Positions 28,658 to 50,027 are shown, counted from the first letter of the stretch. The stretch is DNA of 64,000 nucleotides from Candidatus Latescibacterota bacterium (GCA_965237675.1 OZ250150.1:1376001-1440000); one strand, 5' to 3'. The notes: generated from the sequence alone by a model not told the origin. Translations and numbers: made by a program.

Positions 28658-28660
28658 AAA

Positions 28661-29566: not shown

Positions 29567-29617
29567 TCTGGAGTACACCAACTCTACGACTCGCTCATCA
29601 TCCCTGGGCTGCCGTGC

Positions 29618-29703
29618 TGCAAACGTTCCCGCGGTGCGCGAACTACCAAAGGCAGTTGCGCGAAGGGCCGAATGGTCTGAGCCGAACACGGTCGTGTTAC
29701 ACG
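29618..29703 (-). mobile_element. attC-like site 1 (degenerate)
   Basis: Homologous to sites 3 and 5; GTTACACG at 29696 is the reverse complement of CGTGTAAC at 30339. Confidence 0.7.
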
Positions 29704-29739
29704 TTGCCGTGGCCGGGTGGACGCGACACGACCTCGATA

Positions 29740-30282: not shown

Positions 30283-30338
30283 TGACCGTGTCCTTGAGTG
30301 TCTACCAAGGGTCAGGTGGTGATGTCGGGTTCTGCTGG

Positions 30339-30431
30339 CGTGTAACGTGCTCACTATTTACGACCCCGCGTATGCGGGGTGCCGGATGGCCAAGGGGCGT
30401 ATGCCCCGCAGCGTAAATGGGGTGTTATCGG
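30339..30431 (-). mobile_element. attC-like site 2
   Basis: TAAC...ATTTACG/CGTAAAT stem with two internal hairpins...GTTATCGG. Confidence 0.85.
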
Positions 30432-32121: not shown

Positions 32122-32323
32122 GGACCCGCTCCGTGGACATCGAAGAGGTATTTTTCCGTTTCGGTCATGAGGCAACCCTTTCTCTCACAGATCGTCGCAT
32201 TTGCGATTTGAGTTTGTTAGTGGGATGTGACAATCATCGGAACGAAATGGTTCGGTAAGCCCGCTGTGGCGTTCTCTGTTTGCTTCGTGATATTGATTCA
32301 CACCGATGCTCTCTTTTCTATTG

Positions 32324-32411
32324 CCGATAACGTTTTCCGTGCCCCCGAACCGCGAAGCGGTTGCGCGGAGGGCCGAATGGCCCGAAGCCGGGGGCACGGT
32401 CGTGTTATGTG
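32324..32411 (-). mobile_element. attC-like site 3
   Basis: CCGATAAC, 11-bp stem CCGTGCCCCCG/CGGGGGCACGG, two GAA-loop hairpins, GTTATGTG. Confidence 0.88.
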
Positions 32412-32529
32412 TTGTGCCAGCCGGGGGGCGAGGGCGGCCTTGCCACGGATGGCAAGGCCGCTTTGTCGCTGAAACAGAATTCCCGCTAAATGAATTATTC
32501 AGCGGAAATCTTGAAAGAAGAACGAGGGA

Positions 32530-32700
32530 TTATGTCTCCTGTTTCACCGATTCTTCTCTACTTTTCCGCACCAGCTTTTCAGGATGCTCTTTCTGGCGTC
32601 TTATGTAATACGCCACCAATTTCTTTGGGTCGTGATCACATTGCTCCGAAATCCTATGACGCACTTCACGAATCCTACGAATGGTCGGATCATCTTTCAT
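32530..32700 (-). CDS. Small putative antitoxin partner of the PIN toxin (56 aa)
   Basis: Manual translation MKDDPTIRRIREVRHRISEQCDHDPKKLVAYY...; overlaps the PIN stop. Confidence 0.65.
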   Translation of the reverse strand: MKDDPTIRRIREVRHRISEQCDHDPKKLVAYYIRRQKEHPEKLVRKSREESVKQET

Positions 32701-33175: not shown

Positions 33176-33364
33176 TATATATCATATTGTTTTTAATATG
33201 GTAAAGACGGTTCAATCCTGCTGCGATTGGTCACCTATTGACCTGCTATAAATCTACATATCTTAATCAAGTTCTTCAAGCGAAATTTCCGCTACTGAAG
33301 AACGTAGTGAGATTCTCTTGGGCGGCCAGGACGGCCGCCTGCTTTTGGAGGAAGGCTGGCATTG

Positions 33365-33454
33365 CACATAACGTTCTTGGGCCTTGCGAACCCGCGTCAG
33401 CGGGTTGTGTCGAAGCCCGACAGGGCTGAGCCGCAAGCGGACCTGTTAGCAGCC
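33365..33454 (-). mobile_element. attC-like site 4
   Basis: CACATAAC...TTGCG/CGCAA with internal hairpins...GTTAGCAGCC. Confidence 0.85.
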
Positions 33455-33583
33455 GGTGCTTCGGAGAAGGCATTCGACTGCCCCTCTACTCCAGGAATTG
33501 ACCTCTGTGCCTTTGTGGTGCGCCTTACGTTCCGCTTCCGGGAAGGACGTTGGCATAACAGCCTGGCCAGGTCGATCATTGAA

Positions 33584-35857: not shown

Positions 35858-36205
35858 AATCTGTACCGTCTTTTTTTACCCGCAGAGCCCGCGGAGAACG
35901 CAGAGAACGGCCTTCCATGATTCACGGCCGCTCATCATGATCGAGAAGCCGAGAAATATCAGGCTGAACCCCAGCCAGCAGCCCAAGCTCGGCTGTCGGC
36001 ACCAACTCAGGACCCGAGCTAACAGGAGCAACGTCGAGAATGGACGAAGAACGCTTTGGTTGCCGGCGGAAGGTCCGCTCCCACGTTTAACCCGAGGACC
36101 TCAACGACCCTCCCCGCTGTCATGAGAATGGGAAGCAGGAGTGCAGGTAACGCCGCAACCAGAGCAGCACGGAGGTCATTCGCAGTCATTGGTTTCGACT
36201 GGCAT

Positions 36206-36293
36206 GGCTGCTAACGTTTTCCGTGCCCCCGAACCGCGAAGCGGTTGCGCGGAGGGCCGAATGGCCCGAAGCCGGGGGCACGGTGTTAGAGGC
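36206..36293 (-). mobile_element. attC-like site 5
   Basis: Interior identical to site 3 except a 3-nt deletion; GGCTGCTAAC...GTTAGAGGC. Confidence 0.88.
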
Positions 36294-36323
36294 TGTGTGG
36301 CAGGGGTGGGGTTGAGTGGTTGC

Positions 36324-36614
36324 TCAAGCGCTTAACGACCGAGCCACGGTTTCTGGGTTTTCCGAAGCAATCTTGAGTAGGGCCCGAGCAGGACCCTCGG
36401 GACGGCGCCGTCCCTGTTCCCAATTTTGCAAAGTAGAGACGCTGACGCCAATCATCAGGGCGAATTCAGATTGCGACTTATCCAGTTTCTTTCGGATCAT
36501 CCTGATATCGGCGGGATCCATCTGGGTCGTGCGCCCTGGCTTCAACTTGCCGCGCTTGATCGCGCCAGCTTGCTTGACGCTGGCTACAAGTTGGTCAAAG
36601 TCACGCTCATTCAT
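36324..36614 (-). CDS. HTH-XRE antitoxin (HigA/NadS-like)
   Basis: IRKKLDKSQSEFALMIGVSVSTLQNWEQGRRRP. Confidence 0.88.
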   Translation of the reverse strand: MNERDFDQLVASVKQAGAIKRGKLKPGRTTQMDPADIRMIRKKLDKSQSEFALMIGVSVSTLQNWEQGRRRPEGPARALLKIASENPETVARSLSA

Positions 36615-36928
36615 GCCAGATACTCCCTTACGAGTTTGCTAAGCAGATTGCACTGTCGAGAGGTGAGATCTTCCTGCCGGCTCTTCCGATACACCCAGAG
36701 CATATAGACAACCTCGGCCGGCTTGTCCCAATAGTAGATCACACGAAGACCGCCCCGTTTGCCAGCGTGCGGCAATTTCCATCTCAGTTTTCGCAATCCA
36801 CCTGTATGCGGAATCAGCTCTCCTGATTCTGGCCGGAATAGGAGCGCCAGCTGTATTGCCCGGTAGTCCTCATCCGATAGTAGGGTCAAGATCTCCTTTG
36901 TGAAGATTGGCGTCTCGACGAAGATCAT
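36611..36928 (-). CDS. RelE/HigB-family toxin
   Basis: MIFVETPIF...TGGLRKLRW...GKRGGLRVIYY. Confidence 0.88.
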   Translation of the reverse strand: MIFVETPIFTKEILTLLSDEDYRAIQLALLFRPESGELIPHTGGLRKLRWKLPHAGKRGGLRVIYYWDKPAEVVYMLWVYRKSRQEDLTSRQCNLLSKLVREYLA

Positions 36929-36984
36929 ACGCACAATATACGCCAATGACGTATAGCACGCAAGGTCTTTACTTTGGCCACATG

Positions 36985-37020
36985 GCCTCTAACTACGGTA
37001 TTACCGAACAGTTACGGTAA
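36985..37020 (-). mobile_element. attI-like site A heading the five-cassette array
   Basis: R box matches the end of the HigBA cassette; followed by TACGGTATTACCGAACAGTTACGGTAA with no closing attC arm. Confidence 0.6.
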
Positions 37021-37388
37021 CGCGTACCTAATGCGAAGATCTGCGAACATTCGGGAACATGTTGCTTCGAAGCGTGTAGTCCGAACATGCTCAGGAATGC
37101 ATCCTATAGTCTTCACGATTGTACCAGAGTCTGATCTCGCGCTTAATTTCCCTGCAGCATATATATGAGGGTTTGTTGCCCTCGTTGGAAGAATTAAGTC
37201 GCGGTCGCGAGATATGTAGAAACGTGGGCGTATGAATTATACCTGCAAAGGAAGGCGACGGCAAGAGCGTGGGCGACTTCAGATCCACAAACTCATATGA
37301 TGTCGGCCGCAGAGCCGCTCCCTGAGCCGTCGAGCAGCAGCAGGCACGCCGTGCAGGTTGAAGTCATCGCAAATTCAGGCTCGTGGCG

Positions 37389-38084
37389 TTAGGCGAGACT
37401 TGTACGTCGGTTCCCAGTGTTTCTCGCCCGGCCACTCCCGGTACTGGATGTCCGTTCCGAAGGCACTCAACGCGGCAAACAGCTCCTGTTCTGTCGGGAA
37501 ATTCTTCACGATGTCGTACTCCTGTCCATCCGAGAGAACCGCCGCTCGATGGTATCGCCGTTGGAATCCTCGTGACGTTGCGCGGCCATTCCGTCAACTC
37601 TGGGAACGTCATATTCGAGCTGGTCCGAAAACAGCACCAGCGCTCCGGGAATCAACCTGCGGTGAAGCGATTGCAGAAACTGCCGCACGCGGGACCTGGG
37701 AATGTGCGACCACCACCAGACAGCGAACGCTGCCGTGAAGGCGCCCGCCTCGGGGCCGAGGGAATACGCGTCTGCAAGGCGGAATTTCACATGCGGGAAA
37801 TGTTCACACCTCGATTGAGCCCGGGAGATCATTTCAGGATTGACGTCAATTCCGACAACCGACTTTGCAGTTTCCGCAAGGACCTCCGTCCAGTATCCGG
37901 TTCCACACGCAATTTCGAGGACGTCGTGGCCGAGAAAGAGCTGCTGATATCTTCTCTTTTTCGCAACGCGGAGAGTTTCTGCGTCGTGAGTCAGATACCC
38001 CGCGCTAACGTCGTATTCCGGAGCGCGCGCGGCATAGTATCGGGCCGTTTCTTCGGATGTCCCATCGCTGGAATGAGGCGTCAT
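37389..38084 (-). pseudogene. Class I SAM methyltransferase with a 1-bp deletion near 37540
   Basis: YYAARAPEYD, VLEIACGTG; GAGAACCGCC here versus GAGAACCCGCC in the 27.9 kb copy. Confidence 0.8.
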
Positions 38085-38091
38085 CTCGACC

Positions 38092-38517
38092 CTATTCGCA
38101 GTTCTGTCTCTCGAAATTCCGAACAACCATTCCCACGCACTCCGAGAAACCCTGCTTGACGTAGAATTCAGCCACATCCCGGTCGCACACCAGGTCTACC
38201 ATATAAAGATGCCCGACCTGATCGAGCATTCGCCTGACAAGTTCGGCGCCAATGCCCATACCCTGGTATTCCGGGAGTACGCTGAGGTGAGGAATATATG
38301 CACAGGACACACCGTCCGAGATGGCGGAAATCCAACCGACGACCTGTCCTTCCGGCGAAATAGCCAGAACATGGAAATCGCTGCCCTGTAAAATTCGGAG
38401 ATGCGCCTCCGGGGAGGGAGGATCAGGCCAGTTTTCGAAGTGACCCTCAAGATTGTCGGGCCGGATTCCCTCAAGGGTACTCTGGTATCTGATTGACATC
38501 GGGTCGTGTGCGTTCAT
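38092..38517 (-). CDS. GNAT family N-acetyltransferase
   Basis: VLPEYQGMGIG motif A; FYVKQGF. Confidence 0.88.
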   Translation of the reverse strand: MNAHDPMSIRYQSTLEGIRPDNLEGHFENWPDPPSPEAHLRILQGSDFHVLAISPEGQVVGWISAISDGVSCAYIPHLSVLPEYQGMGIGAELVRRMLDQVGHLYMVDLVCDRDVAEFYVKQGFSECVGMVVRNFERQNCE

Positions 38518-38692
38518 GTGGATTTTTCACTGGCCATGTGGTCTGGCGTCTTGCCGCGCCTCAGCCGCGAATGCAGATGGGCGAAGGGGGTCTGCCCGAA
38601 GGCACATCCCGTCGGGTCGCTCGCCTGTGTTGGTCTCCGCAACTGAAAACGCGCTGCGCAGTCAACGGGACGTGGCTCGTTCCGCCGTATGA

Positions 38693-39457
38693 TCAGGCAG
38701 CTGTCAGTGCGGGTCTTCTGGCGACCGCCACAAGACGATTGGATTCCCTGCCGTATTCCTCCCCCTCGAAACTCCCGTAGAGTTTCACATCGCCAAATCC
38801 AACGGCAAGCAGTCTGTCCTTCAGTTCCTGGCCGGAATATACGGTGTGGTGAAACTCGAAGGTGCGGACCTCCGGACCCTTGATGATGATCCATTCATTT
38901 CTGATGCGAGACCATTCGTCGAAGATCTCGTGGCGCTGCACCATCAGCGTACCGTCTTCAAGCTTCTCGGACGTCGTCGGCTGGAAAATCCTCGCCAGCT
39001 TCTCCTTGCCGATGATATCCATCACAAGACGTCCACCGGGCTTCAGACTGCCAAAAATCCTCCTCAACACCCTGACGTCCTCGTCCTTGTCATCAAAGTA
39101 GCCAAAGGAGGTGTTGAGGTTGAGAACAAGATCGAAGGATGCGGGGCGCTCAAACCCCCGCATGTCTTTCTCGACCCATTCGATGTCCGGATTCCATTGC
39201 GCCGCCCTTTCCGCCCCCTTGCCCAGCAGAAACGGGCTCCTGTCCACCGCTGTGACCTGAAACCCGCGCTGCGCCAAGGGGATCGCAAAGCGGCCGGGGC
39301 CGCAACACAGGTCGAGGACCGACCCTGAGTCCACACCGACCAGATTGAGGATGTCGTCAAGGTGCTTCTCGGCAGCCTCAAACCTTGCCTTAGAAAAAAG
39401 AAACGGATAAATCGCGGTCCAGAAGGACTCGTCTTCAAACCATTCCAAATGCCTCAC
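38693..39457 (-). CDS. Class I SAM-dependent methyltransferase
   Basis: VLDLCCGPGR, TSFGYF, LKPGG. Confidence 0.9.
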   Translation of the reverse strand: MRHLEWFEDESFWTAIYPFLFSKARFEAAEKHLDDILNLVGVDSGSVLDLCCGPGRFAIPLAQRGFQVTAVDRSPFLLGKGAERAAQWNPDIEWVEKDMRGFERPASFDLVLNLNTSFGYFDDKDEDVRVLRRIFGSLKPGGRLVMDIIGKEKLARIFQPTTSEKLEDGTLMVQRHEIFDEWSRIRNEWIIIKGPEVRTFEFHHTVYSGQELKDRLLAVGFGDVKLYGSFEGEEYGRESNRLVAVARRPALTAA

Positions 39458-39538
39458 CTCCTGGACTTACCAACTCAATACAATTCGACTTCCCGTTTAG
39501 CGGGCGTGTCCTCACAGTTCTCAGGAAACGAATACTTT

Positions 39539-39590
39539 GCGTAACTTTGGTTTTGCCAAACAGGGACGGAAATACGGACCGGACCGGAAA
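39539..39590 (-). mobile_element. attI-like site B (diverged)
   Basis: GTAAC-TTTGGTTTTGCCAAACAGGGACGGAAATACGGACCGGA aligns with the 46967 copy. Confidence 0.5.
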
Positions 39591-39630
39591 ACGCCCGAAC
39601 GCTCGCGACAGGTCACTCCTGGCCCGATCA

Positions 39631-39867
39631 TCAAGCTCGTAGATGCGCTTTCCATCCGACCACAACAATTTCACGTTCCGCCTCGGCAGGCACAGCGCGA
39701 AGTCCATCCGCTCGCCGATCCTCAAGGATGAGCGATATCGCATCCCGTAGACTCATAAGGGCTTCATCCTTAGACTTTCCCTGGCCATTGGCACCCGGAA
39801 TCTCAGGGCAATAGGCAATGATCCATTCGTTGTCATGTTCGATCACTGCGGTGAATTCGTTTCTCAT
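39631..39867 (-). CDS. hicB: HicB-family antitoxin (short)
   Basis: FTAVIEHD..W.IAYCPEIPGANGQG.S.DEA. Confidence 0.85.
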   Translation of the reverse strand: MRNEFTAVIEHDNEWIIAYCPEIPGANGQGKSKDEALMSLRDAISLILEDRRADGLRAVPAEAEREIVVVGWKAHLRA

Positions 39868-39972
39868 ATTCGACCCTCCTGGAATCCTGATTCAAGGCTC
39901 ACTGCTCAAATCAATATATCCTCTTCCATTGGGAAAATACAGAAAAGATATCTGTTTCATCCCAGCCGATGT

Positions 39973-40033
39973 CATTTAACGTTCTCCGGTTTGCGAACCC
40001 AGAGCTCGGCCGCGGAGCCTACGCGCTGAGCCG
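39973..40033 (-). mobile_element. Truncated attC-like site (site-4 type) at the ankyrin gene 3' end
   Basis: TTAACGTTCT...TTGCGAACCC...GCTGAGCCG matches site 4; GTT arm missing. Confidence 0.55.
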
Positions 40034-41782
40034 TTCCTGATTTTGCGATCTGGCACCTGCTTGCCGAAGCATCTCGGCGATTTCCATATGCCCACGTTTT
40101 TCAGCCCAGGCTAAAGGCGTTGCCCATTTCGGTGTGTTGGAAATATTCGCGGAAGCCCCACGTTCAAGCAAAAAAGCAACCACATCTTTGTGGCCCGCGC
40201 GGACATGCCAGCCCAGTGGCGTCGAACACAGTTCGTCATCTTGAACATTCAAATCAGCCATATAATCGAGCAACAATTCTGCCATCTCAATCATCACGGC
40301 TTCACTATTGTTCCATACTTCCTCACGTTCATGATAGCTTCCCCCGATCCAATGCAATAAGGTTGAGTTTTCCGGCCCCCGGATGTTAACATCAACACCA
40401 TAATCCAAAATCATCCGTACGGTTTCTCCGGCGCCGCTTTGCAGCCCCCAGCGTAAACACTCAAACCAATAATCCGCATCAAAATCGGGTTCACAGCGCA
40501 AGCACATTCTTACGACATTGACATCTTCAAAGCTCAATCCCGAACGCATGGTTTGTCGAACCACGCCTTCACTACGATCCTGTGGCAAATAGCCGGCTTC
40601 CCGAACAGCCGTGGCACGATCCAGTAACTCACCTATCACGCAATATTGTCTTGCCTTCACGTATGTCCACATCATCGGGTGCCCACCATTTACATAGATG
40701 CGATCCGCCAAACCCTGGTTGCCAGACAGCAACGCCTCGTCAGCTACGCCCAATTCCGAATCATTCGCGGGTGCATCCGTGCGCGCACCGCGATCCATTA
40801 ACCGTTCGGCCACATCAAAGTGTTTGCGTTCCAGTGCATAAATCAATGCACCGCAAATATGGACCACCTTACCACTGCGTTCACATTTTGTATCCACGTC
40901 GGCTCCAAAATCCAAGAGCAAATCTACGACCTCCAAATGCCCCTCGCGCGCCGCCATCGCCAGGGGATAGGTCGATGCATTTTTGTTATTCGCACGCCCG
41001 CACTGATAATTCACCAGACTGGCGTCCGCTTCCAGCATCTTCTTGACACCTTCCAGATCACCAAGAGCACTGGCTACCCAGATGTCGTAATTTGCCCCAT
41101 GTTCAAGCAACAATTCAGCCATCTTTCGATACGCCGGCTTATCACGGTTGGGGTCGTTGCCTTTAAATAGAGCGCGGTGGATGGGTAATTCATTTTCGGC
41201 GTTCTTGATATTCACATCAGCGCCAGCGGTGAGCAAGTCGGTCACAAGTTTAAACTGCATATGCCACACCGCATAATGAAGGGCTGTATTGCCGGCTGTA
41301 TCGCATTCGTTTATGATTGCCGGTTCCTTTTCCAATATGAAGCGCACTTTCTCAAGCTCCTGCATCCGGGCCGCATCACAGAATTCCACCCCACGAGATG
41401 TTGTCCCATGTTGTGTGTTCAACCACGCGTCAATTAAAGCGACGACCTCCGTATGCCCTCGGTCCCGTGCCAATGTCAACGGTTGCGACGCCTCCCGGTT
41501 AGGCCAAATCCCAACGGTCGGACCGGCGCCCGCTTCGAGCAGTATCTTCACTACCTCTGCATGACCTTCCCGAGCGGCATAGTGAATGGGGCGTCGTCTG
41601 TGTTGCTGATGGTTTTTGGCAGTTGCCAAATCCGGATTCTTCTTCAACAGCATCTTTACCCTTTCCACGTCTCCCGCTTGCGCAGCGTGGCATATTCTGA
41701 TAGCATCTGCAAACACATCGTCTCTTGAAGGGGCTTCATTTCTAAAAGTCTTCTTTGCCATTATTGGAAACCGTTCATTCAA
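40019..41782 (-). CDS. Ankyrin-repeat protein
   Basis: Many P(I/L)HxAAxxGHxEVVxxLLxxGA repeats. Confidence 0.9.
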   Translation of the reverse strand: MNERFPIMAKKTFRNEAPSRDDVFADAIRICHAAQAGDVERVKMLLKKNPDLATAKNHQQHRRRPIHYAAREGHAEVVKILLEAGAGPTVGIWPNREASQPLTLARDRGHTEVVALIDAWLNTQHGTTSRGVEFCDAARMQELEKVRFILEKEPAIINECDTAGNTALHYAVWHMQFKLVTDLLTAGADVNIKNAENELPIHRALFKGNDPNRDKPAYRKMAELLLEHGANYDIWVASALGDLEGVKKMLEADASLVNYQCGRANNKNASTYPLAMAAREGHLEVVDLLLDFGADVDTKCERSGKVVHICGALIYALERKHFDVAERLMDRGARTDAPANDSELGVADEALLSGNQGLADRIYVNGGHPMMWTYVKARQYCVIGELLDRATAVREAGYLPQDRSEGVVRQTMRSGLSFEDVNVVRMCLRCEPDFDADYWFECLRWGLQSGAGETVRMILDYGVDVNIRGPENSTLLHWIGGSYHEREEVWNNSEAVMIEMAELLLDYMADLNVQDDELCSTPLGWHVRAGHKDVVAFLLERGASANISNTPKWATPLAWAEKRGHMEIAEMLRQAGARSQNQERLSA

Positions 41783-42001
41783 ATGTCGGCGTGCTGAACG
41801 ACGCAGGCCGTATTGGCAAACCCAATCCGAAATCTCAACCTCGCAAACCTCTTACTACCAAAATTACGCCGATCGTCTCACATTGAAATAGGCAAGACAA
41901 AAGAGCCATGCAGATACTTTTCGAAAGGTCAATTGGAAGAGAAGAGGAGGGTGGGAAAAGGGATTTGGTTTGGGAGTTTCTTTAGGGGATGGCGGAAATT
42001 G

Positions 42002-42036
42002 CGTGTAACTACGGTATTACCGACAGGTTACGGTAA
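42002..42036 (-). mobile_element. attI-like site C upstream of the ankyrin gene
   Basis: CGTGTAAC-TACGGTATTACCGACAGGTTACGGTAA, near-identical to site A. Confidence 0.6.
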
Positions 42037-42065
42037 AACGCATCAGGTCCGAACATCTCCCAACG

Positions 42066-42175
42066 TTTGGAATGGTCAGAATGCGCACCCCTTCTGTCAT
42101 AATAATGTGCTTACCCTGGCGTGCAATGTGAAAACCGGCTTTCTCCAATGCACGTACGGAATCCAAACCTGCCAT
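42066..42175 (-). pseudogene. hicA: HicA toxin remnant
   Basis: Manual translation VRALEKAGFHIARQGKHIIMTEG / VRILTIP, frameshifted and truncated. Confidence 0.65.
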
Positions 42176-42254
42176 ATCGGACACCTCGTCTAGTTTTTCG
42201 GAGAGCGTCGCGCTAACAAATAACCACGGCAGTTCTCGGAAAACCGCTCGCCAG

Positions 42255-42440
42255 TGTTCTGTCCCGGAAATTGGTTGCCAAAATTCGGCCGATCAGAAGC
42301 AGCAATAACAGCTATCAGCTCTCAGCCGTCAGCTTGAACCAAAAACCCAATCAGTTGACATCAGCGCCGTGAAGAGACGAGACCAGAACGGGCGCCGCGA
42401 GACGGGATGAATCGGCGGCCGAATGGTGAGATATTTTCGG
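42255..42440. mobile_element. Partial MITE of the same family as 60307-60467, with nested heptamer repeats
   Basis: Shares TGTTCTGTCCCGGAAAT..GTTGCCAAAATTCGGCCG and GCCGCGAGACGGGATGAATCGGCGG; right TIR truncated. Confidence 0.7.
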
Positions 42441-43286
42441 CTAATTGGCCACGAAGTGCCGGTAGAGCGGTTTCACTTCCTCCGGAAGCCCCTCGTACAC
42501 GTCGCGGCGCAGGGGCTCCATCTCGTAGTTCTTCCCGCCGGTCTCCACCACCATCATTTCGTGCTCCGGCGTGCCTACGTGCGTCGGATTCAGGTTCAGC
42601 CACCAGGGAGCGTAGCGCACGATCAGGGCCACCCGGGGGCTGCCGCTCCGGTTGGGGGCAACCGCGTGCCACTGCCGGCTGTCGTAGAGCAGCACCGAAC
42701 CCGCCCTGCCCTCGGTGTTGATCTCGGCCGGCTGGGGTGCCTCGTTGTCGAAGCCGGGGAGGTCTCCCGTCGCCGGATTGTGGTCCTTCCGGTGCGTGCC
42801 CGGCAACAGCAGCGTCCCTCCGTTGGAGGCGGAGAAATCGGTCAGCATCCACAGCGACGACGCGTGCATCATCACGTCCGGGTAGGGGGCGGCGACATTG
42901 GAGGCGTTCGTCTGGTTGAACGGCCAGTCCGCGTGCCAGTAGCCGCGCTCGTTCCCCGGGTGGTTCACCACGGCGTCGGTGCAGGAGATCCGCAGCCAGG
43001 GACCGAAGAAGATCTCGAGGGCCCCGACGATCCGCCGGTCGGCCAGGTACGGCGCGAACGACTGGTCGTGGTTGACCGCCTGCTTGAGCACGCGGACGCC
43101 GCGGGCTCCGACGCGGTGGCCCCTGGCTCGAGTCGCCCTTTCCCTGGCCTGGTTGGCGGCGTCGTTGGCGGCGTGCGCCCGCACGACGCGCTCGCGGATC
43201 CTGCCCACTTCCCCTGAGGGGATGACGTCCTCGACGATGCAGTAGCCGTTTTCCCTGATATGGTGCGCTATTTCAGCTGGTTCCAT
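42441..43286 (-). CDS. Phytanoyl-CoA dioxygenase (PhyH) family protein
   Basis: ENGYCIV, WHADW, NGGTLLLPGTH, WHAVAPN. Confidence 0.9.
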   Translation of the reverse strand: MEPAEIAHHIRENGYCIVEDVIPSGEVGRIRERVVRAHAANDAANQARERATRARGHRVGARGVRVLKQAVNHDQSFAPYLADRRIVGALEIFFGPWLRISCTDAVVNHPGNERGYWHADWPFNQTNASNVAAPYPDVMMHASSLWMLTDFSASNGGTLLLPGTHRKDHNPATGDLPGFDNEAPQPAEINTEGRAGSVLLYDSRQWHAVAPNRSGSPRVALIVRYAPWWLNLNPTHVGTPEHEMMVVETGGKNYEMEPLRRDVYEGLPEEVKPLYRHFVAN

Positions 43287-43433
43287 GTCGTTGTCCTTTG
43301 CCCAGGTGCCGGTTCGGTTGTCCGGACCGGAAGGAATGGCAGGGAGCATTTCCCTGGCAAGGTGGATGGTCCAGGGTGACCGTCATCGGTACTTCCCGGA
43401 TCGCCTTGGTCCACCTGCATATGTACTAATGTA

Positions 43434-44504
43434 CTAACCGTAGACCGCCTGTATCATGGCATTGATGTAGCCGAAGCAGTACGCGTAGGACTGATAGGAG
43501 CGCATCGGATCGTCGTCAGTCCACGGAACGTGGTCCGGATCGATGCCGTAACAGTAGCCCGTGTCCTTCAGGGCCCTTAATACCCGGTGGAAGTCCATAT
43601 CTCCTTCATCGGGCAGCGCCTCGCGGAAGCTGTAGCGCCCCCCAAGGAGGTTACGATAGTGAACCAGGAAGATCGTGTTACGGCTGCCAAAGTATTCGAT
43701 GGTGGGGTAGATTTCAGTGGCCGGATCTTCCAGCCCTTCAGCGATGGAGCCGACGCAGAAGTTCCAACCGTGATACGGACTGCGCTGAATCTCGATGAAA
43801 CGCTTCATGCCCTCAAAGTCGTTGAGGACTTTGTCAACGCCCATATAACCGGGGGGTGTGGCAGGGTCTTCCTGGGAATTGCCCATCCGAACCTTGAATT
43901 CTTCTGCCACCGGAATCATGCGTTCGAGCAGATAATCAATTCGTTCCCAGTGCATGTCGGCCGTGACGCGTCCGGCATCAGTCAGCCTGGCCTGTTCTTC
44001 TGCCGGGATCTTGTCCAGGCGGAACGCGGTGTGGTAGAAGCCGCCGCGACCTTCCTCCGGTTCCGTACGGTCGATGGGAAGGACGCAAGTGTTATAGCGC
44101 AGAGAATCGATGCCGGCGCGCGCAGCGGTCCGGATCATTTCGCATACGAGGTCGATTTCCCGGTCGCGCTCCGGGCTTTTGCCGAAATAGATGATGTTGG
44201 GAAATCTCTCGTATATGGGCAGCGAGCTCATATCCAGTGTTATCCCGAAGGCCTCGTGGCGCTCTCGTACCTGGACCAGTTCCTCATGGTCCCAGCCCCT
44301 TCCGGGGTGGAACGGAAAGACAACGGCCTTGTGACGCACGCCGCAGCGCTGCAGAAAACGCAACTCCGCATCGGTTGACCCGAAACTCTGTGTGCGCACG
44401 TACATACGCCCGCCGTTCGACGATGACTGTGATGCGCCTCCGGTGGCGGAAGCGGCCGCCTCACCGGCTGCGAGGCCTTTTTCAAATGGATCGGATTTCG
44501 TCAT
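43434..44504 (-). CDS. uxuA: Mannonate dehydratase (UxuA-like)
   Basis: IPVAEEFKVRM..EDP, NFCVG, FREALPDEGDMD, PDHVP. Confidence 0.75.
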   Translation of the reverse strand: MTKSDPFEKGLAAGEAAASATGGASQSSSNGGRMYVRTQSFGSTDAELRFLQRCGVRHKAVVFPFHPGRGWDHEELVQVRERHEAFGITLDMSSLPIYERFPNIIYFGKSPERDREIDLVCEMIRTAARAGIDSLRYNTCVLPIDRTEPEEGRGGFYHTAFRLDKIPAEEQARLTDAGRVTADMHWERIDYLLERMIPVAEEFKVRMGNSQEDPATPPGYMGVDKVLNDFEGMKRFIEIQRSPYHGWNFCVGSIAEGLEDPATEIYPTIEYFGSRNTIFLVHYRNLLGGRYSFREALPDEGDMDFHRVLRALKDTGYCYGIDPDHVPWTDDDPMRSYQSYAYCFGYINAMIQAVYG

Positions 44505-44544
44505 TTGGTTCCTTTCGTTGGTACGGCGCCGATGAAGGAATACA

Positions 44545-44607
44545 GAAAAAAAAGCCCGGAAGCTGGATGAGCCGCCTCCGAAACCCTTTCGTTACACTGG
44601 ACGTCAT
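44545..44607 (-). pseudogene. N-terminal remnant of a ParE/RelE-like toxin
   Basis: MTSSVTKGFRRRLIQLP starts overlapping the antitoxin stop (ATGA), then similarity is lost. Confidence 0.45.
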
Positions 44608-44843
44608 TGCCGAGATGGATCAGCTGGAAAAACATCATCAAATGCAATCGTTTCGCTCTCAGCAGTCTCTCTTCTTGCTGCTTCGGCCAGACGGTCCCAC
44701 TGCTCATCGGCTGTGGCATTAAAACGTGCTGTCCAAATATGCTCATCTTTCAGGTCGGCCAGAATACGTGTGGCAATGGCATCCTGCTTGTCTGGCGGCA
44801 GCTTCTGAATTTCTGAAAATGCCTGCTGAAGCAAGTCGGTCAT
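44604..44843 (-). CDS. Small putative antitoxin
   Basis: MTDLLQQAFSEIQKLP..KQDAIA..IL..L.DE..W pattern of small TA partners. Confidence 0.6.
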   Translation of the reverse strand: MTDLLQQAFSEIQKLPPDKQDAIATRILADLKDEHIWTARFNATADEQWDRLAEAARRETAESETIAFDDVFPADPSRQ

Positions 44844-44994
44844 TTCTGCAGCTCCTTGTGTGAGTGCGCAGTTTTCTGAAAATATAACTCCAAATGGCGA
44901 TATTGGTTGGATTGACTTCTGCTCATTCGCTCTTTCGATTGCTCACTTATTTACGGGGGACCGCTGTCTCATTAATATAGGCACAGAGGGTCCC

Positions 44995-45339
44995 TCATTT
45001 CAGTGCATCCGTCTCCAAGACATCGGCGAGTGTTTCAGTCGCCCACTGATTGATACTCTTTCCGCTGACTTCAGCCGCCATGGCAATGGCTGCGTGGACC
45101 TCTGGTGGGATGCGCAACATCAGATTGCCGGAATAGGGCTTTTGAGGGGACCTGTTGAGCTTTTCACAGGTTTCAAGATAGTCGTCAACCGATTCTCCAA
45201 AAGCATCACGCAGTTCTTCGACCGATTCGCCGTGAAAGCCTACCACATCATTGATCCCTGCAATATGACCAATGAAGCAGCCGTCTTCATGGCTATAGTC
45301 AATTCGAGCCGCGTATCCTCTATGGGTCATTGTGTTCAT
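44995..45339 (-). CDS. hicB: HicB-family antitoxin with RHH domain (orphan)
   Basis: MNTMTHRGY.A.I.YS..D..F.G...FHGESV.EL...KPYSG.LMLRIPPEVH; only a HicA-like tail (QAGVAP*) upstream. Confidence 0.85.
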   Translation of the reverse strand: MNTMTHRGYAARIDYSHEDGCFIGHIAGINDVVGFHGESVEELRDAFGESVDDYLETCEKLNRSPQKPYSGNLMLRIPPEVHAAIAMAAEVSGKSINQWATETLADVLETDALK

Positions 45340-45564
45340 GGGGCTACTCCTGCCTGTTGTCTGCAGATCGCTCTCGCTGTCTTGCCCATTGTGTCTCTGC
45401 GTCTTTGTGTGAGCCGGCTTTTTCGTGACGACGCGAGGCCCGGGGGTCTCCCCTGCGAAATCCAGGCATCCGCGAATTGATATCGCAAGGCCATATCGAT
45501 GTCCGGCGGGGTGCGGCGTGGTCCTCTTCCCTCTCCCGTTTACCTTCTCACTGCTTCTTGTGCT

Positions 45565-45795
45565 ACCCCTACGCGCCTTTTTCGTGTCGGCCGAGAAGGT
45601 GCTGGGCGATGAATCGCTGGCTGTAGACGACGGGACCCACGTATCGGACCTGGACGGAGTTGTTCCGCGACCCGCAATGCCAGATCTGGTTGTGGAACAT
45701 GTAGACGTCGCCCGGTTTCGCGACCAGGGATACCGGCTGCCGGCCTTCAAAGGTCGGAATCTTGCGGTCGTTCGGGTTTCTGCCGGCGTAGTGGC
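45565..45795 (-). pseudogene. Diverged duplicate of the 3' end of the PhyH gene at 47095-47919
   Basis: Aligns to ~47097-47396 with an internal deletion between GAGGCGCTG direct repeats. Confidence 0.85.
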
Positions 45796-45822
45796 AACTG
45801 AGTGTTATGGTAAGCTGGACTA

Positions 45823-45996
45823 TCAGCCCGTGCTCGTGTCTATTGATGGTTCCTTATGATCATCCGGTTTTTGTCCCGATCTTTCTTCAATATACTCAAT
45901 TTGTTGTTGAGGAGTCATCCCTTGCATCTCTTCGCTCATTTGATCACGAAGAGTCCGCATGAGTTGAACCGCATTAGTCTGCTGTTTCGTCTTCAT
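45823..45996 (-). CDS. Small antitoxin-like protein (57 aa) after an internally deleted PIN remnant (~45975-46140)
   Basis: MKTKQQTNAVQLMRTLRDQMSEEMQGMTPQQQIEYI; upstream fragments LSDVTLAELRQAP and LEIRSPQEV; R''-like CCATAAC follows. Confidence 0.6.
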   Translation of the reverse strand: MKTKQQTNAVQLMRTLRDQMSEEMQGMTPQQQIEYIEERSGQKPDDHKEPSIDTSTG

Positions 45997-46142
45997 AATA
46001 CACCTCCTGAGGAGAGCGAATCTCCAAGGGGTGGGTGTCTTAAAAGGGCTTGCACGGCATCCGGGGCCTGGCGCAGTTCAGCAAGGGTAACGTCCGATAG
46101 TACGGCTGTCAATCGACCCGCTTGAAAGTCGGCAAAAAGACG

Positions 46143-46218
46143 TCCAGAATGTGGTCGCAGCCCCGAAAGGCGCGAAGCGCCTGGAGCACAAACATGCTGT
46201 TAAGCGAAGTCACAGTCT
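46143..46218 (-). mobile_element. attC-like site 6 (degenerate left arm)
   Basis: AGGCGCGAAGCGCCT hairpin; GTTAAGCGAAGTCACAGTCT matches the reverse complement of 46954-46973. Confidence 0.7.
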
Positions 46219-46334
46219 TGGGCGGTTGAGCTGCTTTTCATATTCGACTTGAACTATTCGGCAAATTACTGTAGTTTTTTTCAATCAATGAATAATTCTG
46301 ACAGTGGCTGGTGTTTGCCATAGGAGATTTATGG

Positions 46335-46619
46335 ATGCTTAAAATCTCGTCTGCAAAAGCATTACCTGATTATAAGATTTGGATTCAATACTCAGATGGC
46401 GTTGAGGGTGAAGTAGATTTATCCCATCTTGTTGGCAATGGTGTATTCTCCGCTTGGAAAGATGCAAATGTGTTTCAGGCTTTCCGGGTTGAAAACGGCA
46501 GATCTATTACTTGGACAGACGAAATCGATCTGTGTGCAGATTCGCTCTATTTGGAGATGACAGGAAAAGCTCCCGAGGATATTTTCCCTGCGTTGAGGAT
46601 GGAAGATGTGAATGCCTGA
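46335..46619 (+). CDS. DUF2442 family protein (putative TA partner)
   Basis: YSDGVEGEVDL...ITW..EIDLCADSLY. Confidence 0.8.
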   Translation: MLKISSAKALPDYKIWIQYSDGVEGEVDLSHLVGNGVFSAWKDANVFQAFRVENGRSITWTDEIDLCADSLYLEMTGKAPEDIFPALRMEDVNA

Positions 46620-46872
46620 GATATGTCGGTTTTATGGAATTATTATCAAGATGTACGTGAATGATCATCCACCCCCGCATTTCCATGCGGAATACGCAGA
46701 ATATGCGGCTGTGATCAATATTGGGACATTGGCCGTCATCGCAGGAAATCTCCCTTCACGGGCGCTGGGTTTGACAGTCGAATGGGCATCGTTACACCAA
46801 GACGAAATGAGAAATCTATGGGAGCGAGCACGAAATCATGAATCCTTGGGCAAATTAGATCCTCTGCAATAG
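46612..46872 (+). CDS. DUF4160 family protein (putative TA partner)
   Basis: MPEICRFYGIIIKMY..DHPPPHFHA. Confidence 0.85.
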   Translation: MPEICRFYGIIIKMYVNDHPPPHFHAEYAEYAAVINIGTLAVIAGNLPSRALGLTVEWASLHQDEMRNLWERARNHESLGKLDPLQ

Positions 46873-46966
46873 AGATCCGATCATAACCCGGTACTTCTAC
46901 CGCAATGACCAAAGCTAAAGCTTCCGGTTGTTGCGGTTTTTGTCTGGGGGGGTAGACTGTGATTTT

Positions 46967-47010
46967 GCTTAACTACGGTATTAACGAACAGGTACGGCAA
47001 TACGGACCGG
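46967..47010 (-). mobile_element. attI-like site D
   Basis: GCTTAAC-TACGGTATTAACGAACAGGTACGGCAATACGG. Confidence 0.6.
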
Positions 47011-47094
47011 AACGGAAATTCCCGATCAGTCGGCATGTTGAATTACGCCGACCAGTGAAAGCGTTGGCAGGAGCCCGGGCGACTCAAAGTGCGC

Positions 47095-47919
47095 TTAACC
47101 GTACGCGCCCTTTTCGTGTCGGCCCAGGAGGCGCTGAAGGCGGGGTCTGGCGTCTTCCCAGACGTGGTCGGGCATGCGGTAGTCGATGAACGGATAGAGG
47201 CGCTGGGCGATCATCCGCTGGCTGTAGACAATGGAACCCACGTACCGGACCTGGTCGGAGTTGTTTCGGGACCCGCGGTGCCAGACCTGGTTGTGGAACA
47301 TGTAGACATCGCCCGGTTTCGCGACAAGGGACACCGGCTCTCGGCCTTCGAAGGTCGGATTTTCGCGGTCGTTCGGGTTTCTGCCGGCGAAGTGGCTGCC
47401 CGGAATGACCTGGGTGACGCCGTATTCGATGGAATCGGCCCTGCTGAGCGGGATCATCACGTTGATCACGAAACAGGGGATGGGGATATCCGGATTGTGG
47501 CGCGGGACGCCATCGGGAAGCGGGAACTGGATCTTATCGTCCAGGTGCCACCCGCCGCCCTGGCCGGGTTCGTAACGCAGGGCGTTCTGAGACATCATGT
47601 GGCAATCTTCGCCCAGGATGGCCTCCGCCAGGCTGACGATGGGCTCGCGTTCGATAAGGTCCCGGTAGTTGCGGTCATACTCGTACATGCGCATCATGCT
47701 GATTCCGCGGATGTGATCGCCCGCTTCGTCCGCCTGAATCCGGGGGTCGTTCCACTTGCGTTCCATGCCGTCCCTGAGCGCGTCCACTTCCTCGGGGGTG
47801 AGCACGTTTTCCAGGAAACAATAGCCGTCCCGGTTGAACTGTTCCACGATCTTCCGGGTGGTTTCTTCGTCGAGGGCCTGCGCGTTTTTTTCGATAACGC
47901 TGCTGTCTCGGGTATGCAT
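47095..47919 (-). CDS. PhyH family dioxygenase
   Basis: FNRDGYCFL, WHLDD, IPGSH, WHRG. Confidence 0.9.
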   Translation of the reverse strand: MHTRDSSVIEKNAQALDEETTRKIVEQFNRDGYCFLENVLTPEEVDALRDGMERKWNDPRIQADEAGDHIRGISMMRMYEYDRNYRDLIEREPIVSLAEAILGEDCHMMSQNALRYEPGQGGGWHLDDKIQFPLPDGVPRHNPDIPIPCFVINVMIPLSRADSIEYGVTQVIPGSHFAGRNPNDRENPTFEGREPVSLVAKPGDVYMFHNQVWHRGSRNNSDQVRYVGSIVYSQRMIAQRLYPFIDYRMPDHVWEDARPRLQRLLGRHEKGAYG

Positions 47920-48141
47920 CGGGATCTCCTCAATTGTGTGGTCTGGCAAAAAATATAGGGATCTGCCGGTGAGGAGACAATTGATTTGAAGGGAGGCGCA
48001 CAACGCCATTTTTCTTTGACTTCCGGGGGAAACTGTGCCATCATGCCATCGTTGCCGCCCGTCGCGGGGTCGGAGTGCTGAATGAACGGCATTCGCCGTA
48101 GATCCGCGACGCTTGCGTCCACATTCTATATGGAGGAATCC

Positions 48142-49241: not shown

Positions 49242-50027
49242 ATGACGGATGACGAGAAGTATCTTTTCGATTTGACCGGGTACCTGGTGCTGAGGGATGT
49301 CCTGAAGCCGGAGGAAGTCGAGCGCTGCAATGCGGCCATCGACAGACACATCGATCAGCTCAAGGAGAGGGAGGGGTCGCTCACGGTGGGCGCGCCGGCG
49401 CTTGGGGGTACGTCGAACAGGAAGGATCTGGGCGGAATGCTGGCATGGGAGCGACCGTGGTGTGAACCCTTCAGGGCGATGCTCGTGCATCCCCGTGTGA
49501 TGCCTTGTCTGCACGTGATTCTGGGCAAAGGATATCGGCTGGATCACGGGCCCGGTCTGATTGCCATGGACAAGGGCTGCGAAGGGGGCACGTTGCACGG
49601 GGGCGGTGTGGAACGTCCGGATCTTTCAGAGGCGTATTTCTTCAAGAACGGACGTATCTATTGCGGATTGACCGTCGTGGAATATCTATTGGCGGACGAG
49701 GGGCCGGGAGACGGGGGCGTGGCCGTGGTTCCTGGCAGTCATAAGGCGAATCTGGCGTGTCCGCGCGAGATGAACCGGGGCGAGAAGTACGGCGAGCATG
49801 TGGTGGAGGTGAACGGACGGGCCGGAGACGCGGTGATCTTTACCGAGACTCTGACACACGGGACGTTGCCGTGGGAGGCCGAACACCAGCGGCGGGCGCT
49901 GTTGTACAAGTTCAGTCCCTCATTCCAGGCCTACGGGGTGGGCGCGCATACGGTGACGTATCCGGACTACATCATGGACATGACGGATGCGGAGCGGGCG
50001 GTGATGGCGCAGGCGCACATGCGGTAA
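49242..50027 (+). CDS. PhyH family dioxygenase
   Basis: YLFDLTGYLVL, LHGG, VPGSHK, LTHG. Confidence 0.88.
   Translation: MTDDEKYLFDLTGYLVLRDVLKPEEVERCNAAIDRHIDQLKEREGSLTVGAPALGGTSNRKDLGGMLAWERPWCEPFRAMLVHPRVMPCLHVILGKGYRLDHGPGLIAMDKGCEGGTLHGGGVERPDLSEAYFFKNGRIYCGLTVVEYLLADEGPGDGGVAVVPGSHKANLACPREMNRGEKYGEHVVEVNGRAGDAVIFTETLTHGTLPWEAEHQRRALLYKFSPSFQAYGVGAHTVTYPDYIMDMTDAERAVMAQAHMR

Follow-up and report, generated by a model that had tools for sequence, protein, structure and literature searches.

Probable attI-type docking sites without an integrase lie in series in one cassette array of a Candidatus Latescibacterota genome

The window, as we call the whole 64,000-nucleotide stretch of the Candidatus Latescibacterota genome analysed here (OZ250150.1:1376001-1440000), contains an array of gene cassettes on its minus strand that is rich in toxin-antitoxin-type and small genes, and four copies of a short motif. 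The copy at 36990, the only one in the window to head a clear attC array, is followed toward lower coordinates by five cassettes. Cassette 1 contains an HTH/MqsA-like antitoxin gene (36327-36614) and a 111-aa ORF (36614-36946), assigned with Pfam, and is closed by an attC hairpin at 36205..36292 (94 bits with the attC covariance model R1; fold z −4.3). Cassette 2, with a 56-aa ORF (36019-36189) and a glycosyl-hydrolase-like ORF (33587-35857), ends with the attC at 33362..33452 (42.3 bits; chain match CTGC/GCAG), and cassette 3, with a PIN-domain ORF (32693-33175), with the attC at 32321..32411 (99.6 bits; CACA/TGTG). The attC sites at 30336..30431 (30 bits, E 5.7e-6; fold z −2.6; CCGA/TCGG) and at 29614..29703 (73.3 bits; CGTG/CACG) close cassette 4 (PhyH-domain ORF, 30592-32175) and cassette 5 (166-aa ORF, 29857-30354), respectively. 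All five attC sites lie on the minus strand.

Complementarity between R' and R'' was found in all five consecutive cassettes, with boundaries at G|TT; in cassette 1, the start TTAGAGG is complementary to the attC R'' CCTCTAAC. In the structure of this attC family 89.4% of the cells were paired, compared with 26-46% when the partners were slid, the single-strand DNA fold z was as low as −4.7, and 31 of the 32 matches of model R1 at E <= 1 share a strand. The body of cassette 2 (33466-36215) has a second copy at C1 4754960-4757707 (96.7% identity), next to an integrase-linked attI. The homology stops exactly at TAA|C in both places, the neighbour being an attC in the window and an attI-type site at the distant locus. 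The PIN gene is likewise duplicated together with its own attC at C1 4725417-4726561 (95% identity), whereas the attC sites upstream of the two copies agree at only about 75%. The sequences thus indicate that the cassettes are exchanged integron-style at G|TT.

A preliminary description of this DNA had placed the motif at 36990, 42006 and 46970, with a diverged copy at 39542. Indeed, the exact 13-nt core was found at 36994, 42010 and 46974, corresponding to TAAC starts at the first three positions, and the copy at 39542 could be aligned to the others. With up to two mismatches allowed, the core gave 8 matches against 1.18 expected, a number reached in none of 100 shuffles. A conserved unit of ~70 nt, longer than had been seen before, ends at its 3' side with the motif. 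TACGGTA occurs twice, 19 nt apart, as direct repeats had been described, and two or three CCGTA-type repeats per core, putative accessory direct repeats, are kept across the copies. Conservation is confined to the integrase side of the crossover and has a sharp edge at TAAC (GTTA on the minus strand) in all copies, the flanks beyond being unrelated. No hairpin was found in the cores of the four window copies (single-strand DNA fold z −0.48 to +0.79, compared with −4.3, −4.7, −2.6 and −1.1 for four attC sites). That the motif is half of an attC was ruled out by the cassette boundaries, the R'/R'' complementarity and the cassette common to site and attC contexts, which show exchange at G|TT. By its sequence, it behaves as an attI-type simple, non-hairpin site, in agreement with the original proposal. 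A scan for sigma-70-like promoters, which does not cover the promoters of this phylum, gave no match inside 36990-37110 (site and spacer); the nearest match on the array strand is at 37264-37236.

The genome contains 11-12 copies of the site, four in the window and seven or eight 3.3 Mb away. A whole-genome profile search returned 11 copies at E <= 8.5e-9 and two weaker matches at E 0.005 and 0.04; these 13 are all on the plus strand, and 12 further matches at E > 0.3 were counted as noise. A sequence-only covariance model of the site gave 12 matches. Nine of 12 copies could be aligned to a reference integrase-attI unit, and their 3' ends fall at reference positions 1497-1509 (GTTA) in eight cases and at 1492 in the remaining one. 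Their 5' extents are nested, starting at reference positions 1079, 1106, 1223, 1377, 1358/1437, 1433, 1427, 1428 and 1450.

In the window, the copy at 36990..37110 (minus strand) consists of an exact motif together with about 118 nt of integrase-attI spacer without the integrase; about 120 nt of the unit are kept. It is 87% identical over 130 nt to the integrase-linked unit and ends 11 nt beyond the point that corresponds to the integrase stop. The crossover would fall at TAA|C, between 36992 and 36993. The box match noted earlier for the HigBA cassette is present: CCTCTAAC at 36986-36993 matches GTTAGAGG, the right end of the attC 36205-36292. The other three copies, also on the minus strand, are orphans. 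The diverged one at 39542..39612 (profile E 1.4e-15; no hairpin) belongs to a subtype common to it and the copy at 46970, and lies between a methyltransferase/GNAT block and an ankyrin gene. The copy at 42006..42075, with a core of 65-70 nt (profile E 1.7e-17; reference positions 1433-1497), lies between the ankyrin gene and a PhyH gene, within a 636-nt stretch absent from the contigs of two other runs. The copy at 46970..47040, about 48-70 nt long (profile E 1.2e-16; reference positions 1450-1497), forms the upstream end of the series. The cassette adjoining it, with DUF4160 and DUF2442 genes on the plus strand (46311-46869, Pfam), begins with a 20-nt repeat at 46954-46973 that is 90% complementary to 46199-46218, which bears out the second box match. 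This inverted repeat, together with an R''-like GCTTAAC, suggests on sequence reading a probable degenerate attC that closes this cassette, on the minus strand at 46140..46218; it has no clear closing GTT and was missed by model R1 at E <= 1.

The preliminary description had each of the four copies heading a mini-array of its own. Instead, they lie in series within one co-oriented array, and those at 36990, 39542 and 42006 stand in the place expected for an attC of the gene block before them. The block at 37111..39541 (minus strand) encodes a methyltransferase (37509-38177), a GNAT protein (38095-38517), a 126-aa ORF and a second methyltransferase (38696-39457; Pfam), with no attC of the family inside and no R''-type box matching the block start. 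The block at 39613..42005 (minus strand) encodes an ankyrin-repeat protein (40022-41782, Pfam) and has no attC inside either; model R1 found no attC of the family anywhere between 36990 and 47000. Three window copies lie inside stretches missing from the contigs of other runs. Since the ends of these stretches are not at G|TT, the copies were gained or lost by something other than clean site-specific exchange. The contigs of public runs showed no clean excision junction, and a new cassette at an orphan copy was seen in no variant. As had been stated, no integrase adjoins the window copies: there is no tyrosine recombinase of the site-linked type within the 64 kb, with the closest Xer-like gene some 91 kb past the window end.

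The genome does encode such an enzyme. One of the distant site copies is preceded, in the same direction of transcription, by an intact gene for a 333-aa tyrosine recombinase, whose stop codon lies 131 nt away. The C1 copies at 4757704, 4731783 and 4760147 adjoin the 3' end of this recombinase (one intact gene, two fragments), so that the site stands beside an integrase in three of the 11-12 copies of this genome, in none of the four in the window, and most copies are integrase-free. In other genomes, the site was found beside the integrase at 8 of 11 Latescibacterota-labelled loci and on one Gemmatimonadota-labelled contig. Between species with 96.6% identical recombinases, the cassette adjoining the site is a different one.

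The catalytic residues of the recombinase are present (by eye). It scored 214 bits with TIGR02249, below the cut-off of 265 bits, with the match broken into two stretches and model positions 175-234 left out, and its best NCBIfam match was the XerA model (218.6 bits, cut-off 220 bits). The best match among solved structures, VchIntIA (151.8 bits), was also split in two, with 27 residues where IntI4 has 69, and a 41-column insertion of four canonical IntI is missing from its alignment. In the tree it falls outside the canonical IntI clade (clade support 100/100). The missing additional domain (I2 helix), the failure at the IntI model cut-off and the tree position rule out a canonical IntI; the sequence is that of an IntI-like recombinase without this domain. 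Of the integrase proposed earlier for the motif, a recombinase beside the site thus exists elsewhere in the genome, but it is not a canonical IntI. Messier and Roy, in 2001, reportedly considered the additional domain necessary for attC recombination. The I2 helix is held to enable IntI to use folded attC sites (PMC7790495), and the attC reactions proposed here may be beyond a recombinase that lacks it.

Taken together, we consider it probable that the motif is the attI-type double-stranded docking site of an integron-like cassette system and that the four window copies are integrase-less versions of it, placed serially in one array. The full platform is found 3.3 Mb away, with recombinase gene, 131-nt spacer, a site of about 70 nt ending in ...CCGTAG|TTA and cassettes following each other in one direction; the cassettes carry hairpin attC sites and are exchanged at G|TT, and we infer that this recombinase is the enzyme acting on them. 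Copy 36990 has retained the spacer and heads five attC cassettes, and copies 39542, 42006 and 36990 also close a gene block downstream, like the delta-attI sites of class 1/2 integrons. Integrase-attI modules may have been duplicated or inserted into arrays, by attI x attI, attI x attC or homologous recombination, after which the integrase side would have eroded. The window copies can be read as nested 5'-truncated remnants of an integrase-attI unit, and decay or duplication of a platform would explain the nested truncations at least as well as the purpose-built, free-standing docking sites suggested in the preliminary description.

That the orphans are nevertheless working docking sites under selection, served in trans by the one intact recombinase 3.3 Mb away (a distributed integron), seems to us rather unlikely, even though the ~70-nt core is complete in them, with 19 columns invariant despite unrelated flanks. 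The starts of five of eight orphans lie within about 10 nt (reference positions 1427-1437), as if a functional unit were preserved; the genome has one intact recombinase with the same site, the R' of the first cassette at 36990 pairs with the R'' of its own attC, and all 14 other genomes of the genus have the site in multiple copies. However, in 13 of the 15 species genomes of the genus the recombinase is absent or fragmentary and the sites persist (full-length gene only in G000, near-full in G012, fragments in five, nothing in eight). This persistence weakens the model of a standing trans-acting integrase. Since the recombinase is mostly absent in the genus, most site copies have no resident enzyme and may be inert. 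The diverged copies at 39542 and 4682677 moreover show changes to the repeats and to GTTA, the gene blocks headed by three of the window copies have no attC, and neither the indel ends nor the search for new cassettes described above agrees with working sites.

It is still less probable that the attC arrays are the work of a canonical IntI, since lost or visiting horizontally, and that recombinase and motif are an unrelated integrative module that landed at array heads. Canonical IntI does occur in 17 of 168 genomes of the phylum and in G017 of the same family, and attC recombination is held to need the additional domain (PMC7790495), but no canonical IntI was found in this genome or in the 14 other genomes of the genus. 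A cassette boundary coincides exactly with the G|TT of the motif, one cassette is common to motif and attC contexts, and at the motif the R' of the first cassette is complementary to the R'' in the attC of that cassette. In a Desulfitobacterium chromosome and a Bacteroidetes genome the recombinase-site-attC layout is found again, with the predicted junction matching the first attC, and none of five tested genomes with this layout has a canonical IntI. At 177 homologous loci, the density of attC-like sites is 4.8 times higher downstream of the recombinase than upstream of it, and 20 of 34 site pairs downstream were chained, compared with 1 of 5 upstream. The motif could also be the terminal sequence of a transposable element carrying the recombinase, for example an IS91-type rolling-circle element, with the orphans as one-ended or truncated copies; nested truncations with one common end would fit, many recombinase homologues lie at contig ends, and in the related genomes G017 and G020 recombinases 46-51% identical to this one are followed by IS91-type Y2 transposases. 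This we regard as very improbable: the site model has no match in G017 or G020, tblastn found no Y2 transposase in this genome with a working positive control (a PF04986 search also gave no match, as did the controls of that family), and the common end is an attC-type crossover with R'/R'' pairing, which a transposon end does not predict.

Coming back to the integron-like reading, we tentatively suggest, as a possibility nearly balanced against its opposite, that such loci represent a widespread unrecognised integron class. Judging from the sequences, its IntI-like integrase would lack the I2/additional domain (never acquired or lost) and be transcribed toward the cassettes, and both hairpin attC and double-strand attI-type sites would serve as cassette boundaries. 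The Desulfitobacterium and Bacteroidetes loci, the downstream enrichment of attC-like sites at the 177 loci and the lack of a canonical IntI in the five genomes speak for it, and literature searches found no published account of such a class. If it exists, some of the 'integrase-less' attC clusters (CALIN) would be explained by it, as would cassette arrays in Bacillota and Bacteroidota, two phyla in which integrons are, to our knowledge, nearly absent. Either the I2 helix would then be dispensable for attC exchange, or these attC sites would be recombined in another way.

The locus resembles a classical integron in several ways: a simple non-hairpin site adjoins a recombinase gene, cassettes are exchanged at G|TT, the attC hairpins have R and L boxes, cassette starts pair with the R'' of their own attC, and the array is rich in small genes and genes of toxin-antitoxin type. 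It differs in the recombinase described above, in a recombinase gene oriented as the cassettes, and in 11-12 copies of the site instead of one. In inverted ('reverse') integrons, found in Treponema and others, the integrase gene likewise points at the cassettes, and attI follows its 3' end; these were reported with canonical IntI, and we know of no description of multiple attI copies in them. The recombinase shares with XerA its best NCBIfam match and the lack of the additional domain, whereas the site, at about 70 nt with direct repeats, is unlike the 28-nt dif and bounds cassettes with attC hairpins, and the genome has separate Xer-like genes that are only 33-34% identical to the recombinase. 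Unlike IS91-family elements with an accessory integrase, no Y2 (HUH) transposase gene lies beside the integrase here. With five attC at 29614-36292 and no integrase in 64 kb, the window corresponds to a CALIN as defined in PMC4889954, according to which most CALIN have no intI pseudogene nearby; the array here, however, keeps a docking site and part of the integrase-attI spacer, and its candidate cognate recombinase would not be counted by an IntI-specific profile. A parallel to the blocks at 37111-39541 and 39613-42005, which have attI-type copies on either side, with nested 5' extents, and end in such a copy instead of an attC, is found in delta-attI-type cassettes of class 1/2 integrons, where attI fragments of variable length from the crossover replace attC and a full attI also occurs on both sides of a gene (PMC12901181). 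The fragments reported there are mostly 14-18 nt long (one of 244 nt, one full 65-bp site) and come from clinical mobile integrons with IntI1/IntI2, whereas those here, of 48-430 nt and with remnants of the integrase gene among them, come from a chromosomal array in an uncultured phylum and go with another type of recombinase.

The 13-nt core of the motif was found exactly at window positions 36994, 42010 and 46974 by sequence search of the window; when up to two mismatches were allowed, the window gave 8 matches against 1.18 expected, a number reached by none of 100 shuffles. The host genome comprises 5.6 Mb in three contigs, with the window at 1376001-1440000 of contig C1, and its closest public relatives carry the label Candidatus Latescibacterota. 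A profile search of the whole genome returned 11 copies at E ≤ 8.5e-9 and two weak ones, every one on the plus strand, with four copies in the window and the remainder at 4.61-4.76 Mb; a sequence-only covariance model of the site gave 12 matches. The shuffle counts and the genome-wide profile search rule out a chance repeat. The preliminary description had placed the motif at 36990, 42006 and 46970, with a diverged copy at 39542. This was confirmed, the copy at 39542 being diverged yet alignable to the others, but the true repeat is longer: about 70 nt are common to all copies, with 19 invariant columns (alignment A5), and the copy at 36990 has about 120 nt in common with copies elsewhere in the genome.

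To compare the extent of the copies, 12 of them were aligned by blastn with the intact recombinase-site unit as reference. Nine matched; those without a match were the diverged copy at 39542 and the two weak copies. Eight of the nine stop at reference positions 1497-1509, which correspond to GTTA, and the ninth at 1492. Their starts are nested, at 1079 and 1106 (both with integrase fragments), 1223, 1377 (window 36990), 1358/1437, 1433 (window 42006), 1427, 1428 and 1450 (window 46970), and past GTTA the flanks of the copies are unrelated. One fixed end of this kind is the look of a recombination site whose functional sequence would all lie on the integrase side of the crossover. The alternative that the motif is half of a longer attC would demand a fold and a partner box. 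Since the site cores do not fold (z from −0.48 to +0.79 versus −4.3, −4.7, −2.6 and −1.1 for attC sites), and no R''-type box pairs with the first bases of the gene blocks 37111-39541 and 39613-42005, which start at 39541 and 42005, this alternative was ruled out. The fixed end at GTTA, the linkage to a recombinase, the crossover shared with attC and the absent fold all support the attI-like reading of the preliminary description.

The copies at C1 4731783, 4757704 and 4760147 each directly follow the 3' end of a minus-strand tyrosine recombinase gene. By tblastn, the genome has one intact recombinase gene (C1 4757835-4758836, 333 aa); two further matches are 3' fragments, which cover 85-92 residues and are 83-87% identical. 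The remaining tblastn matches in the genome were only two Xer-like genes at 33-34% identity. The motif starts 131 nt after the recombinase stop codon, and the order on the minus strand is recombinase gene, spacer, site ending in ...CCGTAG TTA, and then variable DNA. In other genomes, this order recurs in 8 of 11 Latescibacterota-labelled loci and on one Gemmatimonadota-labelled contig, and the motif therefore does occur beside a gene of the integrase type. The Gemmatimonadota-labelled contig (L031, 4001-8141) carries a 47-residue recombinase 3' fragment (79%), an attI-type site (E 5e-21) and three attC-model matches, which reflects either transfer between phyla or a binning error.

At the distant locus, a region about 3.3 Mb from the window, the intact recombinase gene is flanked by two site copies (4760147 and 4757704), and the recombinase-plus-site module therefore behaves like a cassette. 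Comparison with two close relatives showed the tandem reduced to a single unit in one genome and, at another locus, an internal deletion within the recombinase gene. In a species with a 96.6% identical recombinase, a different cassette follows the site, and in two other species the recombinase comes after Ldh_2 and UVR-motif genes. Here, no site lies near these genes (2.86 Mb), and the position of the platform is therefore not conserved. A promoter scan gave no match within the site or the spacer.

To our knowledge, integron biology is founded on a single enzyme type. This enzyme, IntI, is defined by an additional domain (the I2 helix), which docks the flipped-out bases of the folded attC. The recombinase scored 214 bits with the NCBIfam integron-integrase model (cut-off 265), in two pieces omitting model positions 175-234, and 218.6 bits with the NCBIfam XerA model (cut-off 220). 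Its best relative of solved structure is VchIntIA (151.8 bits, the match again in two pieces), and it has 27 residues in place of the 69 of IntI4. In an alignment with four canonical IntI proteins of the same phylum, a 41-column insertion with the motif KYPN...W.WQ..FP was absent from the recombinase and from three array-linked relatives. In a tree of 39 sequences, canonical IntI proteins formed one clade (100/100), and the site-linked Latescibacterota proteins a separate one (100/99) nested among recombinases without the additional domain; the Xer-like proteins of this genome fell outside both. Whereas canonical IntI has the additional domain, the recombinase here lacks it, and we conclude that it is not a canonical IntI. 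In the accepted view, as given in a passage of PMC7790495, IntI acquired the I2 helix for the use of folded attC and the block on second-strand exchange; according to PMC4792948, IntI retains attI x attI exchange on double strands.

The covariance model placed attC-like sites on the minus strand at window 36205, 33362, 32321, 30336 and 29614, all to the left of copy 36990. A relaxed generic scan for AAC...GTT hairpins had recovered only the two strongest attC sites amid much noise and was replaced by profile and covariance-model searches. RNAalifold on a MAFFT alignment missed the L-box stem owing to a 2-nt register shift between two attC subtypes; the structure was therefore written by hand and checked by pair counts. 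It consists of an R box, an unpaired spacer, an L stem and a three-way tip, and is 89.4% paired versus 26-46% with the partners slid. In the folded attC sites, the L stems seem to be uninterrupted. In the window and 180 kb around the distant locus, the model gave 32 matches at E ≤ 1, of which 31 share a strand.

The four variable bases that precede TAAC at one site are reverse-complementary to the four that follow GTTA at the next, and this holds for five of five consecutive cassettes. This R'/R'' pairing test is symmetric, and polarity was therefore settled by the fixed motif end and two duplicated cassettes. One, at window 33466-36215, is 96.7% identical to C1 4754960-4757707; the homology ends exactly at TAA|C in both, where the window copy adjoins an attC and the distant copy the integrase-linked site. 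The other, a PIN cassette, is duplicated along with the attC downstream of it (95% identity), whereas the attC upstream shows only about 75% likeness. The cassettes are accordingly on the minus strand, lead away from the site and share their direction with the recombinase gene. We conclude from these junctions that the crossover at the motif is of the integron type. The first cassette at 36990 carries an HTH/MqsA-like antitoxin ORF and a 111-aa ORF without a Pfam match; the box match proposed for it was recovered, its start being TTAGAGG and the R'' of its closing attC CCTCTAA.

The four window copies had been described as each heading its own mini-array. They stand in series on one strand, and the attC model at E ≤ 1 has no match between window 36990 and 47000, so this description did not hold. 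The methyltransferase/GNAT block (37111-39541) and the ankyrin gene block (39613-42005) each have attI-type copies at both ends. Copy 46970 is followed by one cassette, DUF4160/DUF2442, whose genes lie on the opposite strand; the start of this cassette and 46199-46218 make up a 20-nt inverted repeat, in line with the box match noticed in the preliminary description, and then comes an apparently decayed attC. The window copies thus appear to be orphan or delta-attI-type junctions inside one array. They share the architecture of the delta-attI-type cassettes of class 1 and 2 integrons, for which PMC12901181 describes attI fragments of variable length that extend from the crossover and take the place of attC, as well as attI-gene-attI units that recombine. 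Recombinase-site modules may have been duplicated or inserted, with later erosion that began at the integrase side. The proposed distributed integron, with four heads and an integrase acting in trans, is thus only partly supported: the attI-like sites stand, but the copies read as junctions in one array, and most relatives keep sites without a resident enzyme.

Contigs from public runs skip 39465-39983, 41801-42436 and 45398-47098, the stretches with copies 39542, 42006 and 46970. The ends of these skips lie off the crossover, and ordinary indels and homologous recombination therefore also shape the region; no clean excision junction was found in the covered parts. Run X1 joins 36210 to 36989, the arrangement of the distant locus with cassette 2 beside the site, and probably represents the paralogous distant locus in another organism. 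An 85-88% direct repeat of the 3' end of a PhyH gene (45564-45795 and 47096-47396) flanks copy 46970 and the DUF4160/DUF2442 unit. One X1 contig links 45397 directly to 47099, and the ORF 44998-45750 joins a PhyH 3'-end fragment to a HicB domain. Window 42253-42437, directly upstream of orphan copy 42006 and within a stretch absent from other runs, is a miniature-element-like dispersed repeat of about 184 nt with 176 blastn matches genome-wide on both strands; in four public runs, depth in the bin 41814-42447 is about 10 times that of the adjoining bins, with many loose ends at 42291-42437.

Of 168 genomes of the phylum, 17 have a canonical IntI over the cut-off; this genome and the 14 others of its genus have none. 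The site is present in all 14, mostly in several copies, and the attC family in 13. Among 15 genus species genomes, the recombinase is full-length in one, present as residues 59-333 in another, as fragments only in five and absent from eight. The canonical IntI loci of G017, another genome of the comparison, were rejected as the same system, as both the motif and the attC family are absent there. The canonical intI gene of G017 has an IS91-type element next to it: right beside it, a 283-aa recombinase without the additional domain is paired with an IS91-type Y2 transposase (L041, 6892-8961). Genome G020 has such pairs too (L055 9432-11480, L056 2021-4069), which head dense, co-directional attC arrays; several recombinase copies in G020 score alike. 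In genome G016 (L044 4460-5425, with L057, C1 1718959-1750355), a 55% identical, 322-aa recombinase without the additional domain lies inside an array in the opposite direction; about 30 attC-model matches are all on one strand there, and the genus attI motif was not detected.

Homologues of the recombinase at 40-66% identity are very widespread. As some pair with IS91-type transposases (5-7 of 87 loci, and also G017 and G020) and at least one adjoins a type I restriction-modification system, the family overall is not integron-specific. Two homologues, one on a Desulfitobacterium chromosome (L156) and one in a Bacteroidetes genome (L192), are however followed co-directionally by classic attC hairpin arrays with chained R'/R'' boxes. 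With the IntI model they reach 216 and 220 bits, over model positions 2-180 only. The predicted junction is present in both: GTTA comes 141 nt or about 300 nt after the stop codon, and the 9-10 nt next to it are the reverse complement of the R'' of the first attC. Across 177 loci, a crude detector, which differs from the standard attC model and gives a lower bound, counted 0.132 attC-like sites per kb downstream of the gene versus 0.028 upstream, with 20 of 34 neighbour pairs chained downstream and 1 of 5 upstream; chained pairs occurred downstream in 9 of 81 loci and upstream in 1 of 136, counting loci with at least 3 kb on that side. None of five genomes checked with such a layout had a match over the IntI cut-off. 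Across phyla, the attI sites resemble one another only in a short stretch beside GTAGTTA, which is not enough for a claim of homology. In many metagenome-assembled genomes, the contig stops 0.03-2 kb downstream of the homologous gene, which would fit a repeated or strain-variable region.

Surveys using the domain-based definition find integrons nearly absent from Bacillota and Bacteroidota, and many attC clusters without an integrase (CALIN). Under this definition, the present genome holds only CALIN; the evidence says that its arrays have a docking site and a candidate enzyme outside the definition. Recombinase, docking site and attC cassettes form a complete-looking platform, apparently built on a recombinase without the additional domain. 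Copies of the docking site are numerous and spread across the arrays, and distant phyla show the layout again; the enzyme type and this recurrence are the more surprising result. A passage of PMC9024848 calls integrons very rare in Firmicutes and Bacteroidetes, and one of PMC4889954 reports no nearby intI pseudogene at most CALIN. Our search of the openly accessible literature returned no description of integron arrays headed by a recombinase without the additional domain, which does not prove absence. Should the enzyme be active on these sites, integrons would have to be defined and counted more broadly, a natural intermediate or revertant would make it possible to test how IntI arose from Xer-like recombinases, and attI x attI or attI x attC exchange would gain a part in the building of chromosomal arrays. 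Even with an inactive enzyme, the locus would clearly be the counterpart, on a chromosome, of the delta-attI cassettes of clinical integrons.

Further features of the arrays were observed. A segment of about 350 nt at window 28347-28693 has 77-78% identical copies at four or five places of the distant array, on both strands (C1 4698339, 4729282, 4737670, 4753148 and 4632662); a methyltransferase ORF overlaps this segment, and the first 48 residues of the ORF match a DDE transposase model. Genes for PhyH (phytanoyl-CoA dioxygenase) recur as cassettes or array neighbours at window 30592-32175, 42444-43349, 47098-48009 and 49242-50024, and also in the array of a relative (L055, 7904-9034). The G+C content of window 14000-19000 is 45-53%, versus about 58-60% in the rest of the window.
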